From: Myxococcota bacterium
Lineage (GTDB): Bacteria; Myxococcota_A; UBA9160; JAFDDA01
Length of the DNA stretch: 64,000 nt
Direction: 5' to 3'
Assembly: GCA_965228475.1 (NCBI GenBank)
Contig: OZ245817.1
Span: 896,001 to 960,000 of the forward strand
How positions within the stretch are numbered: the stretch's first letter is position 1; every line of letters begins with the position of its first letter. The translations under genes and the position numbers were made by a program. Below the pieces are notes generated by a model that saw nothing but the letters and a program-made list of their open reading frames with translations, did no database searches and was not told the DNA's origin. Of the stretch, positions 74 through 8,612 are shown in pieces.

Positions 74-123
74 GGGCTAGCTCGTTCCTGTCGCGACCGA
101 GCGCGCCTTCACGGCCTAGCTCG
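67..123. repeat. Direct repeat (period 39) duplicating the ACAD stop / pqqB start junction
   Basis: ccttcacgggctagctcg (67-84) vs ccttcacggcctagctcg (106-123). Confidence 0.85.
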
Positions 124-1858
124 CGTTCGCGGCTTCGAGGGCGAGCACGCGCGCGTCGCGATCGAGGCGGCCTTCGGCGTTCTCCGCGATGCGGCGGGCG
201 AGCGCCTGGTCGACGATGGCCCGGCGGCGGATGAAGGATTCCGCGACGTCGAGGCGGCTCGGGTCGGTGCCGGCCTGGCGCAGCAGCTCCGCGCCGGCGA
301 TCACGTCGATCACCATCTCCGCGACGAGCTTCGCCCGCATGAGCGCGTAGGAGAGATCCGCGAAGAGCACCTTGGCCGAGTCCTCGACGTGCCCGATGCC
401 CTCGACGAGCAGGCCCGCGAGCGGCGCCCGGGCGTCGTCCTTCATGGCTTCGAGCTCGGCCCGGACCTCGCCGAACACCACGCCCAGCGCTCCCTTGCCG
501 ATCTCCTTCAGCGCGAAGGAGGCCTGGATCTCGCTCGTGCCTTCGTAGACGGTCATGATCAGGCTGTCGGCGTGGAGCTTCGCGACGTGGGCATCCATGG
601 TGAAGCCGATCCCGCCGAAGACCTGCATCGCGTCGCGGGTGACCTCGGTGCAGATCTCCGTCGCGAAGTACTTGCAGAGCGGCGTCAGCAGACGGACGCG
701 GACCTCTTCGTGCTCGAGCTTCGCCTGGAGCTCGCCGCGCTCCGCTTCCGAGAGCCCCTCGCGCAGGAGCGCGCGGCGGCGCGCCTCGTTGCGGTCGGCG
801 ATCTCGACGGCGCGGTAGAGCAGGGCGCGCGCGGCTTCGATGTCGACGCGCATCTTGGCGACCATCTCGAGCACGAGCGGCTGCTTCAGGATCGGCTGGC
901 CGAACTGCTCGCGCGTCTGGGCGTAGGCGTAGGCCTCGGCGAAGGCGGCCTCCGCGATGCCGATGGCCTGGGCCGCGACGCCGAGCCGCGCGTTGTTCAT
1001 CAGCTCGAGCATGGCCCGGAAACCCTTGCCCTTCTCGCCGATGCGCTGGCCGATGGCGCCCTCGAAGACGACCTCGCAGGTCGGCGAGCCATGGATGCCG
1101 AGCTTGCTCTCGAGGCGCGAGACCCGCACGCCGTTCGAGCTGCCGTCGTCCTTGTGGCGCCGCACGACGATCAGCGAGAGGCCGTTGGTCGTGCCCTTCG
1201 ACTCCTCGAAGTTGTCGTCATCCCGGGCGAGCACGAGGTGCACCTCGCCGCCGCCGTTGGTGATGAAGATCTTCTGGCCGTCGACCTGGATGTTGCCGTC
1301 GGGCAGCTCCTTGGCGCGCGTGGTGATGCGGCCGAGGTCGCTGCCGGCCTGGGGCTCGGTCAGGTCCATGCAGCCCTGCCACTCGCCCGAGGTCATGCGC
1401 GGCAGGATCGCCTGCTTGACTTCCTCGTCGCCGAAGACCGCGATGTCCCCGGCGGCACCGGCCTGCAGGCCGACCACGGTCATCAGGCTCGTGTCCGCCC
1501 GCGAGATCATCTCGAGGTACATGATGTTCACGAGCATCGGCAGGTCCGGGCCGCCGTAGGCCTCGGGGACGGGCAGGCAGATCAGGCCGTTCTCGGCGAG
1601 CTGCTGGTAGGCGGCCCGGATGTGGGCCGGCGGTTCGGCGCCGCCGTCGGGGGTGAGCGTCGCCTCCTCGGCCCAGGCCTCCCGGGCCGGCTCTTCGAAG
1701 CTCTCGGCGAGGCTCTCGACGGTCTCGAGGACGGTGCGGTAGGCGCCGGTCTCGGCGTCGGCATCGACGCCTTCGCCCGCCCGGAGGGTGAGCAGGTTCT
1801 CCCAATCGACCAGGCGATCGAGGTAGAGACGCATGGCGGGCGCGAAATACGAGGGCAC
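116..1858 (-). CDS. Acyl-CoA dehydrogenase family protein
   Basis: MDLTEPQAGSDLG, GQKIFITNG, KLGIHGSPTCEV, MNNARLGVAAQ, QVFGGIGF, VYEGTSEIQ motifs. Confidence 0.93.
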   Translation of the reverse strand: MPSYFAPAMRLYLDRLVDWENLLTLRAGEGVDADAETGAYRTVLETVESLAESFEEPAREAWAEEATLTPDGGAEPPAHIRAAYQQLAENGLICLPVPEAYGGPDLPMLVNIMYLEMISRADTSLMTVVGLQAGAAGDIAVFGDEEVKQAILPRMTSGEWQGCMDLTEPQAGSDLGRITTRAKELPDGNIQVDGQKIFITNGGGEVHLVLARDDDNFEESKGTTNGLSLIVVRRHKDDGSSNGVRVSRLESKLGIHGSPTCEVVFEGAIGQRIGEKGKGFRAMLELMNNARLGVAAQAIGIAEAAFAEAYAYAQTREQFGQPILKQPLVLEMVAKMRVDIEAARALLYRAVEIADRNEARRRALLREGLSEAERGELQAKLEHEEVRVRLLTPLCKYFATEICTEVTRDAMQVFGGIGFTMDAHVAKLHADSLIMTVYEGTSEIQASFALKEIGKGALGVVFGEVRAELEAMKDDARAPLAGLLVEGIGHVEDSAKVLFADLSYALMRAKLVAEMVIDVIAGAELLRQAGTDPSRLDVAESFIRRRAIVDQALARRIAENAEGRLDRDARVLALEAANAS

Positions 1859-1953
1859 GGGGGATTCTCCGGTTCGAAGAGGATTGCTGGAAGCCGCGGG
1901 GAGGGCCGATCGGGGGTCCTCCCGCGGGCTACGTAGGGTAGCTTATGCGCCCC

Positions 1954-4900
1954 ATGAGCAATGCCGTGTTCGAGCAGGTCGCCCCCGTCGCGAACTTCCC
2001 CGAGGTCGAGGCCGAGATCGTCGCCTTCTGGCGGGAGCGCGAGATCTTCCGCCGCTCGCTCGAGCGCCGCGCCGAGGGCCCGCGCTGGACGTTCTACGAG
2101 GGGCCGCCGACGGCGAACGGCCTCCCGCACAACGGCTCGGTCCTGACGCGCGTCATGAAGGACGTCTTCCCGCGCTACCGCTCCATGCGCGGCCACCACG
2201 TCCCGCGCATCGCCGGCTGGGACACCCACGGCCTGCCGGTCGAGATCGAGGTCGAAAAAGAGCTCCGCATCTCGGGCAAGCAGGCCATCGTCGACTACGG
2301 CGTCGAGCCCTTCGTGAAGCGCTGCATCGAGAGCGTCTTCCGCTACGTCGGCGAGTGGGAGCGGCTGACGGAGAAGCTCGGCTTCTGGGTCGACCTCGAC
2401 CGCGCCTACGTCACCTACCACGAGGCCTACGTCGAATCGGTCTGGTGGGCCCTCTCCGAGCTCTTCAAGCAGGACCTGCTCTACCAGGGGCACAAGGTGG
2501 TCTGGTGGTGGGCCCAGGGCGGAACGGCGCTCTCGGCGGCCGAGGTGGGCGACGGCTACAAGCAGGTGGACGACCCGTCCCTCTACGTTCGCATGCCGCT
2601 CGAGGACGGAAGCGGCCGGTCGCTCCTCGCCTGGACGACCACGCCGTGGACGCTGCCGAGCAACTGCTTCGCAGCGGTCCGGCCCGAGTTCACCTACGCG
2701 GACGTGCGCGACGGGGAGGACGTCCTCGTCGTGGCCGAGGCGCTCGTGCCGACGCTGGCCGAGAAGGTCGGCCGCGATCTCGCGGTGGAGCGCACCTACC
2801 CCGGCTCCGAGCTGGTCGGGCTCCGCTACACGCCGCCCTTCGACTGGTTCCACGGTGCGAGCGACCGTCCGGGCGGGGAGGACGGCTACTGGCGCGTGGT
2901 CGCCGCGCCCTTCGTCGAGCTCGACGCCGGCACTGGCATCGTCCACGCCGCGCCCGCCTACGGCGAGGTCGACTTCGAGTTGCTCCAGACCGAACGCAAA
3001 GCCCGCGACCTGCCGCTGGTGAACGCCGTCCTGCCGGACGGAAGCTACGAGGCGGGCGTGGCACCGGAGGCCTACGCCGGGCGCTGGGTGAAGTCCTGCG
3101 ATCGGGACCTCATCCGCGAACTCAAGGAGCGCGGCCTCGCCTGGCACGCCGAGACGATCCGGCACGACTACCCGTTCTGCTGGCGGGCCGAGCAGGATCC
3201 CCTGATCCAGTACGCCCGCCCGGCCTGGTACGTGCGCACGACCGAGCGCGTGCAGGAGGCGCTCGCCAACAACGCCGAAGTGAACTGGCTGCCCGAGCAC
3301 ATCCAGGAAGGCCGCTTCGGCGACTTCCTGCGCAACAACGTGGATTGGGCGCTCTCGCGCGAACGCTTCTGGGGCACGCCCCTCAACATCTGGATCAACG
3401 ACGAGACCGGCGCCATGGATGCGCCGGCGTCCGTCGCCGAGATCCTCGAGCGCAACCCCGAGGCCTTCGCGCGCTTCGACGCCGCGAAGGCCGAAGACCC
3501 GGACCTCTCGCCGCATCTGCGCGTGCACAAGCCGTGGATCGACTACGTCACCTGGCAGAAACCCGGCGAGCCCGGCACCTACCGGCGCGTCCCCGAGGTG
3601 ATCGACGCGTGGTTCGATTCCGGCTCCATGCCCTTCGCCCAGTTCGGCGCGCCGCACCGCAATCGGGCCGACTTCGAAGAGGCCTTCCCGGCGGACTTCA
3701 TCTGCGAAGCGATCGACCAGACGCGCGGCTGGTTCAATTCGCTCCTCTGGATCTCGACGCTGCTCTTCCCGGATCAGTCGAAGCCGCACCCCTACCGCAA
3801 CTGCATCGTGCTCGGGCACGTGTGCGACCGGGAGGGGCGCAAGGAGTCGAAGAGCAAGGGCAACTACACGCCGCCGGAGATCATCCTCGACCGCGTGCGC
3901 CTCGAGTTCGCCGTGCTCGATGCCGAGGCGGACCTCCCCGCAGGCCGCGCGCGCATCGGCCGCGAGGACTACGAGGGGCTCGACTTCACCGGCGAGGGTC
4001 AGGCCGTCCGCGTCTACCGCGGCGATGCGGAGGGGGAGGGCGTCGAGCTCGTGCTCGAACCCGCGGCGCTGCCGCGCCGGGTGATCGAACTCTCGGCGGC
4101 GGATCGCGAGAAGCTCGGCGTCGCGGAGGCGCCCCACGGGCGCGAGACCCAGCTCGGCGAGGTGCCCGGCCTGCCCGCGGATCGGAAGCTCTTCGTCGAG
4201 GATCCGAACACGCCGGCGCCCGGGGCCGATGCCTTCCGCTGGTTCTTCTTCGCGGCGAACCCGCCCTGGAACAACACGCGCCATTCCCTCGGCGGCGTCC
4301 GCGCCCTCCAGCGCGACGTCCCGATGAAGCTGCGCAACGTCTACGCGTTCTTCTCGATCTACGCGAACGTCGACGGCTTCGACCCGGCGGACGCGGCCTG
4401 CCGGGAGGGCCGCCGCCCCGCCGGCGAGCGGGCGCTCCTCGACCGCTGGATCCTCTCGGAGCTCGCGCTCACCAACCGCCGCGTGATCGAGCACATGGAC
4501 GGCTACCGGCTCTACGACGCGACCGGCGCGCTGTCGTCCTTCGTCGATGCGCTCTCGAACTGGTGGGTGCGCCGCAGCCGCGACCGCTTCTGGGCCAGCG
4601 GCCTCGGCGAGGACAAGCTCGATGCGCACTGGACGCTCTACGAGTGCATCGTGACGCTCGCGAAGCTCCTGGCACCCTTCCTGCCCTTCGCGAGCGAAGA
4701 GATCTGGCAGAACCTCGTGCGCCGGCCCTTCCCGGAGTCCGACGACGAGAGCGTCCACCTCTGCGATTTCCCGGAGCCCGACGAGAGCCACGTCGACGCC
4801 GCACTCTCCGAGGCCATGGCGCTCGTGCGCGAGATCGTCTCGCTCGGCATGCAGGTGCGGACCGCGGGCAAGCTGAAGGTGCGCCAGCCGCTTTCCGCTG

Positions 4901-5553
4901 CGGAGGTCGTGCTCGCACGTCCCGAGCAGGCGGCGGCGATCGAGTCGCACCTCGAGCTCATCCGCGACGAGCTGAACGTCCACGAGGTCCGCTTCGTTCC
5001 GAAAGCCGACGAGTACGTGAGCTACCGGGTGCAGCCGAACTTCCGGGCGCTCGGTCCGCGGGTCGGCAAGCGCATGCCCGCGCTCAAAAAGGCTCTCGGC
5101 GAGGCCGACGGCGCGAGCCTGCTCGCCCAGCTCGAGGCGGACGGCGAAGTGACGATCGAGATCGAGGGCGAACGCTTCGCGCTGTCTCCCGACGAGATCG
5201 CCGTGAGCCTCGAAGCGAAGGAAGGCTTCGCGGCGGCTGCGGGAAGCGGCGGGGTGGTCGTCCTGCGCACGAGCCTGACCGAGGAGCTCGTGGCGGAGGG
5301 CCGCTACCGCGAGGTCCTGAACCGGGTGCAGACCCTGCGCAAGGAGCTCGACCTCGCCTACACCCAGCGCATCCGGCTGACCCTCGACGGTTCGGCGACC
5401 CTGCTCGACGCCGTGCGCCCGCGCGTCGAGAGCCTGGCCGGAGACGTGCTCGCCGTGGAGGTCGAGCTGGGCGCGGAGCCCGCCGCCGGCGCGCAGGCGC
5501 GCGAAGTCGCCATCGACGGTGAGCCGCTGCGCATCGGCCTCCTCGAGGCCTGA
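1954..5553 (+). CDS. ileS: Isoleucyl-tRNA synthetase, type 2 (eukaryote-like), with variant signature motifs and an insertion
   Basis: FYEGPPTANGLPH, GWDTHGLPVE, WTTTPWTLPSN, GTGIVH, DWALSRERFWGTPL, WFDSGSMPF, FPADFICEAIDQTRGWF, long type-2 C-terminus (KVRQPL). Start could be 1945 or 1954. Confidence 0.96.
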   Translation: MSNAVFEQVAPVANFPEVEAEIVAFWREREIFRRSLERRAEGPRWTFYEGPPTANGLPHNGSVLTRVMKDVFPRYRSMRGHHVPRIAGWDTHGLPVEIEVEKELRISGKQAIVDYGVEPFVKRCIESVFRYVGEWERLTEKLGFWVDLDRAYVTYHEAYVESVWWALSELFKQDLLYQGHKVVWWWAQGGTALSAAEVGDGYKQVDDPSLYVRMPLEDGSGRSLLAWTTTPWTLPSNCFAAVRPEFTYADVRDGEDVLVVAEALVPTLAEKVGRDLAVERTYPGSELVGLRYTPPFDWFHGASDRPGGEDGYWRVVAAPFVELDAGTGIVHAAPAYGEVDFELLQTERKARDLPLVNAVLPDGSYEAGVAPEAYAGRWVKSCDRDLIRELKERGLAWHAETIRHDYPFCWRAEQDPLIQYARPAWYVRTTERVQEALANNAEVNWLPEHIQEGRFGDFLRNNVDWALSRERFWGTPLNIWINDETGAMDAPASVAEILERNPEAFARFDAAKAEDPDLSPHLRVHKPWIDYVTWQKPGEPGTYRRVPEVIDAWFDSGSMPFAQFGAPHRNRADFEEAFPADFICEAIDQTRGWFNSLLWISTLLFPDQSKPHPYRNCIVLGHVCDREGRKESKSKGNYTPPEIILDRVRLEFAVLDAEADLPAGRARIGREDYEGLDFTGEGQAVRVYRGDAEGEGVELVLEPAALPRRVIELSAADREKLGVAEAPHGRETQLGEVPGLPADRKLFVEDPNTPAPGADAFRWFFFAANPPWNNTRHSLGGVRALQRDVPMKLRNVYAFFSIYANVDGFDPADAACREGRRPAGERALLDRWILSELALTNRRVIEHMDGYRLYDATGALSSFVDALSNWWVRRSRDRFWASGLGEDKLDAHWTLYECIVTLAKLLAPFLPFASEEIWQNLVRRPFPESDDESVHLCDFPEPDESHVDAALSEAMALVREIVSLGMQVRTAGKLKVRQPLSAAEVVLARPEQAAAIESHLELIRDELNVHEVRFVPKADEYVSYRVQPNFRALGPRVGKRMPALKKALGEADGASLLAQLEADGEVTIEIEGERFALSPDEIAVSLEAKEGFAAAAGSGGVVVLRTSLTEELVAEGRYREVLNRVQTLRKELDLAYTQRIRLTLDGSATLLDAVRPRVESLAGDVLAVEVELGAEPAAGAQAREVAIDGEPLRIGLLEA

Positions 5554-5571: not shown

Positions 5572-6714
5572 CTAGCTGGTGCTCGGCCCCGGCGTGTCCG
5601 CCCCGGACTCCGGCAGCGTCGGCGGCGCGATGTAGTTCGCATCGACCCGGCCCGTCAGCGATTCGAGGAACGCGAGCAGGAGCCGCGTCTGCTCCGCGTC
5701 GAGCTGGCGGCCGAGCTGGTGCTTCGCCATCAGCCGGACCGCTTCCTCGAGGCTCGCGATGCTGCCGTCGTGAAAGTAGGGCCCGGTCTCCGCGATGTTG
5801 CGCAGGGACGGCACCTTGAAGAAGAACTTGTCCGCCTCGTTGCCCGTCGCCTTGAAGCGTCCGGTGTCCTCGGTCTCGTAGGGCTCGACGAGCCCGAGCT
5901 TCTGGTACATCCCGCCGCCGAGGGCCGCGCCGTTGTGGCACGTGGTGCAGCCGACGTCGAGGAAGATCTCGAGCCCGGCCTGGGCGTCCGCCGAAAGGGC
6001 GGCGTAGTTGCCCTGGAGGAAGTCGTCGAGGGGGCCGGGGGTCATGAGCCTGCGCTCGAAGGCGCCGATGGCGATGCCGACGTTCTCGTAGGTCAGCGCC
6101 TGGCCCTCGGCCTCGGGGAAGGCGGCGGCGAACAGGCCCGGGTAGTCCGGGATCGAAGCCAGAACGGCGAGCACGTCGGCTTCGCTCGCCATGGCCATCT
6201 CGACGGGGTTGAGGATCGGTCCGATCGCCTGGGCCTCGACGTCGGGTTCCCGGCCGTCCCAGAACTGGGCGACGTGCAGGGCGGCGTTGTAGACGGTCGG
6301 CGAGTTGCGGTCGCCCCGCTGGCCTTCGTGGCCGGGCGAGGTCGGCTCGCCATCGACGCCGAAGCGGTCGAGCTGGTGGCAGCTGTTGCAGGAGATGTCG
6401 TGGTTCGCGGAGAGCCGGGTGTCGTAGTAGAGCATCCGGCCGAGGTCGATGCGCTCGGCGGTGAGCGGCCGCTCGGCCGTTTCCGCGTCCGCGGGCAGGA
6501 TCCCGAGCACGGGCTTCGCCCGCTCGGCCAGGGCGCGGGCCTCGGCCGACGTGTCGGCCACCGGCGCAGGCTCCGGGACCGCCGCGGGTTCTTCGCTTCC
6601 GCCGCAGGCCACGAGGCCGGCCGCGGCGAAGGCGGCGAGGGCACCCGCCCGCAGGCAGAGCGGCGTTCGGGCGCTTCGGATCGGTCCATGGTTGCGTGCT
6701 CGGTGGTGCTTCAC
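5572..6714 (-). CDS. Di-heme cytochrome c peroxidase (CcpA/MauG family), probable lipoprotein
   Basis: Two CxxCH (CNSCH, CTTCH), RNSPTVYN, QFWDGR, FKVPSLRNI, PYFHDG; lipobox-like LVAC. Start moved to GTG 6714 after a GGGGAGGA RBS. Confidence 0.92.
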   Translation of the reverse strand: MKHHRARNHGPIRSARTPLCLRAGALAAFAAAGLVACGGSEEPAAVPEPAPVADTSAEARALAERAKPVLGILPADAETAERPLTAERIDLGRMLYYDTRLSANHDISCNSCHQLDRFGVDGEPTSPGHEGQRGDRNSPTVYNAALHVAQFWDGREPDVEAQAIGPILNPVEMAMASEADVLAVLASIPDYPGLFAAAFPEAEGQALTYENVGIAIGAFERRLMTPGPLDDFLQGNYAALSADAQAGLEIFLDVGCTTCHNGAALGGGMYQKLGLVEPYETEDTGRFKATGNEADKFFFKVPSLRNIAETGPYFHDGSIASLEEAVRLMAKHQLGRQLDAEQTRLLLAFLESLTGRVDANYIAPPTLPESGADTPGPSTS

Positions 6715-6803
6715 GACGTCCTCCCCGTGTGAGCTTCGCATCGTAGGCTAAAGTCCCGTCTCGACAAGCGCTCCCCCCCGCGCGGTCACGCTCTGGGGGA
6801 ACC

Positions 6804-8612
6804 ATGTCCGCGGCCCACCGCCACCTCGGCCTGCATCGTCGTCCTCGTTTCGTCTCCGTCCTGCTCGGTCTGGCACTGCTCGTCCTGGGCGGTTTCCCGT
6901 CCGGTGAGGCCGCCGCCCAGGAGGCGGAGCCCGCGGCCGAAGCCGCCGCCCCCTCCCAAGTGGAGGAGGTCCCCTACGACGAGTTCGATCGCGGGACGCC
7001 CCGCGGGAGCGCCGTCGGGTACCTCGAAGCCGCGCGCGCGGACGACTACGAGCGGGCCGCCCGCTATCTCGATCTGCGGCGCATCGACCCTGGGCAGCGG
7101 GCGACCCGCGGGCCTCGCCTCGCCCGGGAGCTCAAGCTCGTGCTCGACCGCGAGCTCTGGGTGCCGGTGGACGAGCTTTCGGAGCGGGCGGAAGGCTTCC
7201 AGTCGGACGGCCTGCCGAAGGACACGGACCGCATCGGCGACATCGCCTCCGAGTCCGGGACCGTGCACGTCGACCTGAAACGGGTTCCCCGGGGAGACGG
7301 GACCCTCGTCTGGCTCTTCTCGGACGAGGTTCTCGCCCGCGTCCCCGCGCTCTACGAAGAGTTCGGCCACGGTCCGCTCGAGCAGTACCTGCCGAAGGTG
7401 TTCTTCGAGACCCGGGTGCTCGAGGTGCTCCTTTGGCAGTGGGCCGCGCTGATCGTGCTGCTCTTCGTGGCGTGGCTGCTCTCGTACGCGGTGGCCGCGG
7501 CGGTGGTCGGGGTGCTGCGCCCCGTCGTCGCGCGCACCGAGACCGACATCGACGACCGCCTGTTCGAGAGCACGCTCCCGCCGCTGCGGCTCGTCGCGGC
7601 GGTCTTCGTGTTCTGGGCAGGAACGCTGCCCCTCGGTCTGAACGTTCCGGCGCGGGAGTTCCTCTCGGCCGCCGAGCGCGCCCTCGTGCTGGTCGCCATC
7701 ACCTGGCTCGTGATCCGGCTCGTGAACCTGGTCGCCGAGATCGTCGAGAAGCGGCTCGAGGCCCAGGGTCAGGAGGAGGCCGTCCCGCTCGTCGCGCCGG
7801 GCCGCAAGGCGGTGAAGGCCGCGATCTACCTGATCACCTTCGTCGCGATCCTCGACAACTTCGGATTCAACGTGACGGCGCTCGTCGCCGGCCTCGGCGT
7901 CGGCGGCATCGCGGTGGCGCTGGCCGCCCAGAAGAGTCTCGAGAATCTGTTCGGCGGCATCATGCTCTACGCGGACCGGCCGATCCGCGTCGGCGACTTC
8001 TGCAAGTTCGCGGGCCAGGTCGGCACGGTCGAGGACATCGGCATGCGCTCGACGCGCATCCGCACGCTCGACCGCACCGTCGTGACCGTGCCGAACGCCG
8101 AGTTCTCGAACCTCCACATCGAGAACTACGCCATGCGGGACTTCATCCGCTTCTACACGGTGCTCGGCCTCCGCTACGAGACCAGCGCCGAGCAGCTTCG
8201 CCACGTCCTCGTCGAGATCCGCAAGCTCCTCTACGCCCACCCGAAGGTCTCGAAGGACCCGGCCCGCGTGCGCTTCATCAGCTTCGGCGCGTACTCGCTC
8301 GACGTCGAGGTCTTCGCCTACGTCACCACGTCGGACTGGGCGGAGTTCGTCGGCATCCGGGAGGACCTGATGCTGCGCATCATGGACCTCGTCGACGCCA
8401 GCGGCAGCGGCTTCGCCTTCCCGTCGCAGACCCTCTATCTCGGGAAGGACGACGGCCTCGACGGCGAGCGCGCCACCGCGGCGGAGGCCGAGGTGCGAGC
8501 CTGGCGCGAGCGCGAAGAGCTGCTCCTGCCGGACTTCCCGGACGCCACGATCCGCGAGCTCGAGGGCCAGCACCCCTGGCCGCCGGAAGGGGCGCCCGCA
8601 AAGCGGACCTAG
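6804..8612 (+). CDS. MscS-family mechanosensitive channel with large periplasmic N-terminal domain
   Basis: Signal peptide, TM segments, LVAGLGVGGIAVALAAQ, DRPIRVGDFC, GTVEDIGMRSTRIRT, VTVPN, FAFPSQT. Confidence 0.92.
   Translation: MSAAHRHLGLHRRPRFVSVLLGLALLVLGGFPSGEAAAQEAEPAAEAAAPSQVEEVPYDEFDRGTPRGSAVGYLEAARADDYERAARYLDLRRIDPGQRATRGPRLARELKLVLDRELWVPVDELSERAEGFQSDGLPKDTDRIGDIASESGTVHVDLKRVPRGDGTLVWLFSDEVLARVPALYEEFGHGPLEQYLPKVFFETRVLEVLLWQWAALIVLLFVAWLLSYAVAAAVVGVLRPVVARTETDIDDRLFESTLPPLRLVAAVFVFWAGTLPLGLNVPAREFLSAAERALVLVAITWLVIRLVNLVAEIVEKRLEAQGQEEAVPLVAPGRKAVKAAIYLITFVAILDNFGFNVTALVAGLGVGGIAVALAAQKSLENLFGGIMLYADRPIRVGDFCKFAGQVGTVEDIGMRSTRIRTLDRTVVTVPNAEFSNLHIENYAMRDFIRFYTVLGLRYETSAEQLRHVLVEIRKLLYAHPKVSKDPARVRFISFGAYSLDVEVFAYVTTSDWAEFVGIREDLMLRIMDLVDASGSGFAFPSQTLYLGKDDGLDGERATAAEAEVRAWREREELLLPDFPDATIRELEGQHPWPPEGAPAKRT

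Follow-up and report, generated by a model that had tools for sequence, protein, structure and literature searches.

A predicted double-psi beta-barrel domain nested after the KMSKS loop in a Myxococcota lineage of type-2 isoleucyl-tRNA synthetase

The stretch of DNA analysed here, referred to as the window (64,000 nucleotides, positions 896,001 to 960,000 of the forward strand of contig OZ245817.1, assembly GCA_965228475.1 of a Myxococcota bacterium), carries the gene ileS for isoleucyl-tRNA synthetase (IleRS), in which the KMSKS loop is followed by an extra domain predicted to fold as a double-psi beta-barrel (DPBB). The features of the gene and of its surroundings are collected in Table 1. 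The 1202-aa protein was recognized by the TIGR00392 ileS model at 779 bits (cut-off 621.4) in a match split into two stretches, and its Pfam domains are tRNA-synt_1, Anticodon_1 and DUF5915, with the anticodon-binding domain at residues 833-985 and DUF5915 at residues 1004-1199 (E 3.2e-45). The closest solved structures are those of type-2 enzymes (IleRS2), the best being 8c8v from P. megaterium (E 1.9e-242), and on these sequence matches the window enzyme is classified as an IleRS of type 2. Its genome is a single contig of 5.0 Mb and 96% complete. A whole-genome search returned no second IleRS above the ileS cut-off, so the window gene is the housekeeping IleRS; the other matches to the model all fall below the cut-off, lie in frames of 828-912 aa and seem to represent further class I synthetases.

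The borders of the insert were defined against eight sister enzymes from the phylum that lack it. In the alignment with 8c8v, residues 20-645 of the query correspond to residues 12-602 of the chain, and the match resumes at query residue 760 and chain residue 609, with 114 query residues between the aligned blocks as against 6 in 8c8v. The alignments placed the insert behind the KMSKS loop, with the NYTPPExxL stretch and the short helix following NYTPP on one side and the GADA helix on the other, a region that we take to be the stem-contact fold of IleRS. An initial annotation made from the letters alone had reported about 110 extra residues at this site, lacking intein termini. All three points held, with the length now set at 108 aa (3892-4215 instead of 3892-4221), and the two half motifs that it quoted were confirmed at 3943-4014 and 4075-4122.

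When residues 630-775 were used as the query, 1139 proteins among 3700 candidates matched at E <= 1e-3. The 120 matches listed were IleRS of ~1195-1226 aa or fragments, and the source assemblies named among them were those of Myxococcota, Myxococcales or Deltaproteobacteria. The spacing from KESKS, the form that KMSKS takes in this enzyme, to GADA was 120-126 residues in 116 of the 120, and the short values of the other four arose solely from a second GADA within the insert. An assembly artefact is ruled out by this recurrent spacing and by the presence of KESKS in 120/120 homologues. An intein was likewise rejected: the first residue of the insert is R650, its last two are T756-P757 and A-P-G comes next, with no Cys or Ser at the start and no His-Asn at the end, and no intein family of Pfam matched the insert of the window. 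A mobile-element reading was ruled out from the same termini. The GC content is 0.75 in the insert and ~0.70-0.73 in the flanks, the higher value being due to the Ala, Gly, Arg and Pro content of the insert.

Table 1 Features of the ileS gene, its insert and the neighbouring genes in the window
Feature	Position (nt)	Residues	Strand	Basis or remark
Insertion proper, 108 aa	3892..4215	650-757	+	Aligned to 8 insert-less HNGH/KESKS IleRS and 8c8v
DPBB core	3898..4203	652-753	+	AlphaFold2, Foldseek, VIA-align
Core elements, first half		b1 652-659, b2 668-672, a1 673-678, b3 686-692		AlphaFold2
Core elements, second half		b4 695-707, b5 713-716, a2 718-724, b6 748-752		AlphaFold2
First half motif GRARIGREDYEGLDFTGEGQAVRV (b2, a1, loop, b3)	3943..4014		+	G667, D675, G678 and D680 conserved across long forms
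Second half motif RRVIELSAADREKLGV (b5, a2)	4075..4122		+	R711 and R712 invariant in long forms
Extension of ~21 residues AEAPHGRETQLGEVPGLPADR, short helices, between a2 and b6	4123..4185		+	Long form only; absent from short form
GADAFRW, start of the helix after the insert	4222..4242		+	F764 among 4 body positions differing with insert state
ileS, type-2 isoleucyl-tRNA synthetase, 1202 aa	1945..5553		+	TIGR00392, Pfam, closest solved relative 8c8v
HIGH signature reading HNGS, fourth His replaced by Ser	2128..2139		+	Translation
KMSKS signature reading KESKS	3841..3855		+	Translation
Acyl-CoA dehydrogenase	116-1858		-	Upstream neighbour of ileS, opposite strand
Di-haem cytochrome c peroxidase (CCP_MauG)	5572-6741		-	Downstream of ileS
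MscS-type mechanosensitive channel	6804-8612		+	Downstream of ileS

The insert occurs in a long form, to which that of the window belongs, and in a short form. AlphaFold2 modelled the long insert from a 104-sequence alignment (the insert and 103 full-length homologues) with a mean predicted local distance difference test score (pLDDT) of 88.4 and a predicted template-modelling score (pTM) of 0.81. In the numbering of the model, the elements are b1 7-14, b2 23-27, a1 28-33, b3 41-47, b4 50-62, b5 68-71, a2 73-79, a short helix at 92-97, and b6 103-107. The short form was modelled as a minimal DPBB (pLDDT 88.2, pTM 0.77). In both models the elements follow the order b1-b2-a1-b3 / b4-b5-a2-b6, which is the two-fold order of a DPBB.

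In a Foldseek comparison with the PDB, the long form had 35 matches with E <= 1e-3, headed by 7dg9, the DPBB of a VCP-like ATPase (E 1.8e-5, TM-score 0.75 on the target), and further including designed DPBBs, FwdD, Msm0858, the N domain of p97 and aspartate decarboxylase. For the short form, 257 matches were found at the same threshold, and for both forms DPBB domains stood first at probability 1.00. An independent ranking of 48,161 chains by VIA-align placed the N domain of CDC48A first (Z 12.6, root-mean-square deviation 1.8 over 84 residues). It returned 32 chains at Z >= 8, and all those that could be named were DPBBs, namely PEX1, NSF, VAT, RNA polymerase barrels, FwdD, NuoG and formate dehydrogenase. 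Matches in a viral structure library were the UFD1 N domain, RNA polymerase and RlpA barrels. The crossed psi loops are predicted from the alignments to DPBB structures. All these indicated that, by prediction, the insert folds as a DPBB; the fold is settled at the level of the models. The guess of a DPBB in the initial annotation was thus borne out by AlphaFold2, Foldseek and VIA-align, and the modelled insert is well folded and not disordered. Its claim of two similar halves stood for the predicted structure and was weak for the sequence: comparison of the halves by hhalign gave E 0.25 over 15 columns in the long form, in exactly the register first proposed, and E 0.0011 (probability 20%, 40 columns) in the short relatives.

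We searched for relatives of the insert by sequence. No Pfam family matched the window's insert at E <= 10, a profile of 33 inserts had no significant match to PDB sequences (lowest E 0.35, with 7di0, a designed DPBB, at E 0.49), the short-form profile had no match among proteins of 47-168 aa, the ESM Atlas gave no usable match, and within its own genome the insert profile found the IleRS itself alone. A specific kinship to the CDC48_N domain (PF02359), of whose psi-motifs the two halves had been said to be reminiscent, received no backing, since PF02359 matched none of the 56 inserts scanned (0/33 long and 0/23 short at E <= 1, and not the window's insert at E <= 10); a CDC48_N domain was not found in the genome either. 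One short insert touches PEX-2N at E 0.069. The only recurring Pfam family was Molydop_binding (PF01568), seen in 7/33 long and 14/23 short inserts at E <= 1. Its gathering score of 26.8 bits was not reached, the best listed score being 24.5 bits (E 2.8e-5) among the 18 of 56 inserts for which bit scores are available (17 long, 1 short), and the best E-value of a short insert, 3.4e-6, came from a member outside these 18. The genome encodes seven Molydop_binding domains, with which the insert was aligned by hhalign over 22-23 columns at probabilities of 49% and 71%. These matches are suggestive of an origin from a molybdoenzyme barrel.

A phmmer search with the insert against 1.84 billion representatives gave 21 matches, 18 of them with the flanking motifs of IleRS and the other three being bare fragments of 74 and 107 aa and the protein P0138. 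The latter, 2857 aa long and composed of near-identical ~250-aa repeats with the motif (V/A)PVR-x-DDA-x-x-QG, matches the insert through eight short stretches with a total E of 1.5e-7, which is probably a chance similarity summed over the repeats. Because the matches were IleRS, bare fragments or probably spurious, no stand-alone or differently housed relative of the insert was found in this search.

The insert was present in 22 of 41 related genomes and in none of the 17 genomes of families f6, f7, f10 and f12. Five genomes lacking it contain other kinds of IleRS2: three have HYGH or HFGH with KLSKR, one is N-terminally cut with KLSKR, and one has GIHH with KMSKS. In a sample of 401 genomes of the phylum, 40 matched the long form, 38 of them in IleRS-sized frames and 2 marginally elsewhere. 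These matches cluster in the order of the window and in family f15 (25/29), where all 12 genes that were read carry the insert at the position seen in the window, together with HNGH and KESKS. The DNA pattern for KESKSxGN occurred in 91 of the 401 genomes, as compared with 3 for a reversed control pattern, and all 38 long-form genomes were among the 91. Reading 14 HNGH/KESKS genes without a long-insert match revealed eight insert-less enzymes, where the stretch between the K of KESKS and GADA spans 19 residues, and six with short inserts of 86-96 aa at the site of the long form. A search with the short insert then matched 42/401 genomes at E <= 3.2e-6, with 11 weaker matches elsewhere. Neither form was found in 19 of the KESKSxGN genomes, one of which is a chance match to KECKS. 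The barrel is therefore present in the IleRS of ~80/401 sampled genomes (38 long and 42 short). The two forms were aligned by hhalign over 65 colinear columns (probability 94.6%, E 6.6e-8) and are, as judged from this comparison, homologous. They differ mainly in the ~21-residue extension between a2 and b6, the minimal form being ~90 aa and the long form ~108-120 aa.

To follow the history of the insert, trees were built without the insert columns, those described here under LG+G4, leaving out the cut gene L057 from all trees and the long-branched L009 from the LG+G4 trees. The HNGH/KESKS enzymes form one clade (100/100) with an insert-less lineage, L068, at its base (92/98). The remaining enzymes fall into three groups, namely the short forms, seven insert-less enzymes and the long forms, each supported at 100/100. 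The branching order of these groups is less clear, with the insert-less and long groups joined at just 71/71; the other trees gave a similar picture. Holding all 28 insert-bearing rows together cost 5.05 log-likelihood units and was not rejected (approximately unbiased test, p 0.233). This history is most simply read as a single gain, followed or not by one later loss. The insert is old and lineage-specific, and most simply it entered once into a Myxococcota-specific IleRS2 lineage marked by HNGH and KESKS. Overall, we consider it very likely that a complete DPBB, in a short form and in a long form that gained the ~21-residue helical extension, is nested after the KMSKS loop in the catalytic body of these enzymes.

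Neither signature of the window IleRS agrees with the canonical HxGH and KMSKS, and both lysines and both serines of KMSKS are retained. Among the 120 listed homologues, the HIGH motif reads HNGH in 98, HNGS in 8 and HNGP in 1, and the N-terminus is cut in 13. HNGS, in 8 of the 107 with the N-terminus present, belongs to a small subclade and is found also in the distant protein P0139. KESKS is shared by all 120 and by the insert-less and short-insert sister enzymes, and it replaces KMSKS across the whole Myxococcota HNGH lineage, barrel or no barrel. To our knowledge, a glutamate at the methionine position of the KMSKS loop is unusual. With no other IleRS found in the genome, the variant motifs must presumably be compatible with activity.

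The zinc-knuckle cysteines also seem to have been lost in the window's lineage, as judged from the 8c8v alignment: the Cys pairs in SPYCPSCQTSL and ECEGCQHQ of the P. megaterium enzyme (PmIleRS2) stand opposite WWWAQGGTAL and INDETGAMD of the window IleRS (~2500-2550 and ~3400-3440, residues ~186-201 and ~483-493), and P0139 retains part of them. An insert-less IleRS2 of the same order, L009 of genome G024, has GIHH with KMSKS. Mupirocin hyper-resistance has reportedly been linked by one study to a swapped signature motif resembling this GIHH. Further genomes of the order have HYGH or HFGH with KLSKR, and from this mix of motif types the IleRS of the order come from at least three lineages.

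Conserved positions of the insert were examined in 33 diverse long forms, in all of which V651, D680, R711, R712, L724, D753, A758 and P759 are invariant. The pairs D675/D720, L679/L724 and G678/G725 occupy symmetric helix-cap and turn positions that are typical of the DPBB fold. A basic residue occupies position 711 throughout, Arg in the long form and Lys in 23/23 short forms, and PxEVPxLP is an extra conserved element of the long form. Within and around the borders, conservation reaches 90% or more at I647, L648, V651-A656, D753, A758 and P759.

The neighbours of ileS in the window did not suggest any partner gene linked to the barrel. An overlapping frame at 1833-5522 (+) would encode 1229 aa of an Arg/Pro/Gly-rich translation and is taken as a high-GC shadow open reading frame, a typical artefact with many similar frames in the window. 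An unusual tRNA-Ile was considered and rejected, as the tRNA-Ile(GAU) of the genome is canonical-looking. ARAGORN called a second tRNA-Ile(GAT) at G000:C1:2410719-2410796, which does not resemble a tRNA: its D loop lacks GG, TTC is missing and the end is not CCA-like. This call is likely a false positive within a coding region.

In class I synthetases, the KMSKS and stem-contact side is turned towards the inner corner and the acceptor arm of the tRNA. We tentatively propose, as our best guess, that the barrel is a rigid accessory module located beside the KMSKS loop and the tRNA. It would be attached rigidly and not as a flexible appendage, which is argued from the short and conserved links to the host, with ~2 residues on the N-side and a conserved Pro-rich stretch on the C-side. 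The barrel would then protrude from the stem-contact region next to the KMSKS loop, which is mobile, and could tune the binding of tRNA-Ile or the movement of the loop during aminoacylation. It might do so through a small conserved patch and not through its overall charge, the candidate residues being the basic position 711 and, in the long form, R712, D680 and R692. Such a role would be comparable, by analogy, to that of the leucine-specific domain near the KMSKS loop of bacterial leucyl-tRNA synthetase (LeuRS). Taken as a whole, a nested DPBB acting as an accessory module is the best explanation that we can offer, and we give it slightly less than an even chance.

Several observations weigh against this proposal. 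A contact of the barrel with the tRNA or the KMSKS loop is something that we purely infer, and the tRNA-Ile(GAU) of the genome looks ordinary. The existence of insert-less HNGH/KESKS sister enzymes means that the barrel is not required by the enzyme family as such. The insert is not basic: the net charge is -2 to -11 in 104/104 long forms, 0 to -6 in the f15 forms (n=12) and -2 to +2 in the short forms (n=6), and a generic nucleic-acid binder receives no support from this acidic-to-neutral charge. Over longer distances the insert is the fastest-evolving part of the IleRS, with identities to the window of 54% in the own-order group (10 rows), 38% in f15 (12 rows) and 16% in the short forms (6 rows), as compared with 64%, 41% and 38% for the C-terminal domain, which is the next-weakest. 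R712 and the REDYEG motif are not shared by the short form. Just four body positions (E137, F764, L782 and G886) differ with the insert state, which points to few contacts between the barrel and the enzyme body. In favour of a retained function, on the other hand, the insert is part of the only IleRS found in the genome, is present in ~80/401 sampled genomes and is under purifying selection, with a ratio of non-synonymous to synonymous substitution rates (dN/dS) of 0.235 against a genome of the same genus (dN 0.174, dS 0.743) compared with 0.189 for the whole gene, ~0.15 for the Rossmann halves and 0.249 for the C-terminal domain, all figures from one gene pair and with no significance test.

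Two rival explanations are kept alive by the charge of the insert, which is acidic to neutral, by its fast evolution and by the small number of co-varying body positions. The barrel may be a docking adaptor that binds a peptide or partner protein in the manner of the N domains of CDC48/p97, VAT, NSF and PEX1, and that would recruit a lineage-specific regulator, an editing factor or another synthetase for a regulated or moonlighting function. Its nearest structural neighbours are indeed the adaptor-binding N domains of AAA+ ATPases, and both an acidic-to-neutral surface and few insert-dependent body positions fit this role, as does the combination of fast evolution with a small conserved patch, which is common in protein-protein modules. 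However, a common fold proves no function, the CDC48_N sequence signal was not found, and the acyl-CoA dehydrogenase, cytochrome c peroxidase and MscS-type channel genes, lying on mixed strands around ileS in the window, include no candidate partner; we regard such an adaptor as rather unlikely. Equally to be considered is a nearly neutral passenger, that is, a barrel in a tolerant surface loop that is kept folded to spare the host enzyme and adds no function. Its constraint is similar to that of the C-terminal domain by dN/dS, both forms have been kept across many families in 80/401 genomes, surface-type residues are invariant (R711, R712 and D680 in the long form, a basic 711 in both), and the long form has gained the conserved PxEVPxLP, all of which speak against a passenger. 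In its favour are the position of the insert as the fastest-evolving region, its unconserved net charge, the insert-less sisters that presumably work well, and a possible secondary loss if the insert-less clade does lie beside the long clade (just 71/71). We consider a passenger unlikely, though far from negligible.

Two further explanations appear very improbable to us. According to the initial annotation, the insert might compensate for the altered signatures HNGS and KESKS, and KESKS is indeed found in all insert-bearing enzymes that were read (120/120 homologues, 12/12 from f15 and 6/6 short forms). This is contradicted by the 8 of 14 HNGH/KESKS genes read that have no insert at all, by the basal KESKS lineage L068, which is insert-less, and by HNGS being restricted to a subclade (8/107). 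The motif changes therefore came first and were independent of the insert. It is similarly hard to credit that the barrel shields the enzyme from natural IleRS inhibitors, as a lid by the KMSKS loop and the ATP site that lowers the binding of antibiotics produced by neighbouring organisms or by the bacterium itself. The insert does adjoin the KMSKS loop, which in yeast IleRS touches the inhibitor reveromycin A (PMC7955072), and mupirocin resistance has been tied to type-2 IleRS whose signature motifs are altered (PMC10485003). However, no biosynthetic cluster was seen beside the gene in the window, the gene is the housekeeping copy with no second copy for resistance, and nothing positions the barrel above the active site.

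On a bolder reading, the barrel would be the first DPBB with a working role in an aminoacyl-tRNA synthetase, either as a docking cradle wired to the KMSKS loop or as a new contact to the inner corner of the tRNA, an outcome that we regard as improbable. A CDC48-N-like cradle of this kind would couple the charging of isoleucine to a partner or signal specific to the lineage. The growth of enzymes by nested and appended domains has its textbook examples in the synthetases, and every studied addition that we know of, including the editing domains, the LeuRS-specific domain and the INS subdomain of IleRS2, tunes the handling of tRNA. The DPBB is more familiar from AAA+ adaptors, RNA polymerases and molybdoenzymes. 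Here this ancient and simple fold turns up at a new location, adjoining the mobile catalytic loop of an essential synthetase, and the related enzymes with no, a minimal or an extended barrel provide natural controls that make a kinetic and structural comparison straightforward. The case thus bears on how new domains enter and persist in essential genes.

No published description of this barrel or of any post-KMSKS insert in IleRS was found in the searchable literature, with subscription journals and supplementary files lying outside the search, and the available portions of PMC10485003, PMC7955072 and PMC13752280 make no mention of a post-KMSKS insert. The view that such a domain was not known from IleRS accordingly stands, as no account of it as a feature of an IleRS2 subfamily turned up. 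The barrel in IleRS is a lineage-specific addition, and it may be compared with four known systems. It resembles the N-terminal DPBB of CDC48, p97 and VAT (PF02359) in fold and strand order, and these proteins provide its best structural matches. Their barrel, however, is N-terminal and precedes the beta-clam and AAA+ modules, whereas this one is nested in a synthetase, has no PF02359 sequence match and belongs to a genome without CDC48_N. With the Molydop_binding or FwdD barrel (PF01568) the insert has in common the motif h-x-h-x-P-x-D-x-x-x-L-G, and the barrels of FwdD, NuoG and formate dehydrogenase are among its structural matches; it differs in that the listed scores are below the gathering score and the insert has no molybdoenzyme context.

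The leucine-specific domain of bacterial LeuRS is a small extra domain beside the KMSKS loop of another class Ia synthetase and affects the charging of tRNA. It is inserted before the loop, has another fold and belongs to another enzyme, whereas the barrel follows the loop. The INS of IleRS2, in turn, is like the barrel a lineage-variable nested insertion of IleRS2. In the accessible part of its description (Nat Commun 2026, PMC13752280), it is a nested insertion of ~80 aa in the C-terminal ARD2, which was gained and lost across prokaryotes and tunes aminoacylation through contact with the D-loop of the tRNA. As far as that part of the source goes, the barrel is ruled out as an INS subdomain, since the INS sits in the C-terminal ARD2, whereas the barrel lies outside it, in the catalytic body between residues 649 and 758, before the anticodon-binding domain. 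Because the C-terminal region of PmIleRS2 aligns unbroken with that of the window IleRS, the latter probably carries both the INS and the barrel.

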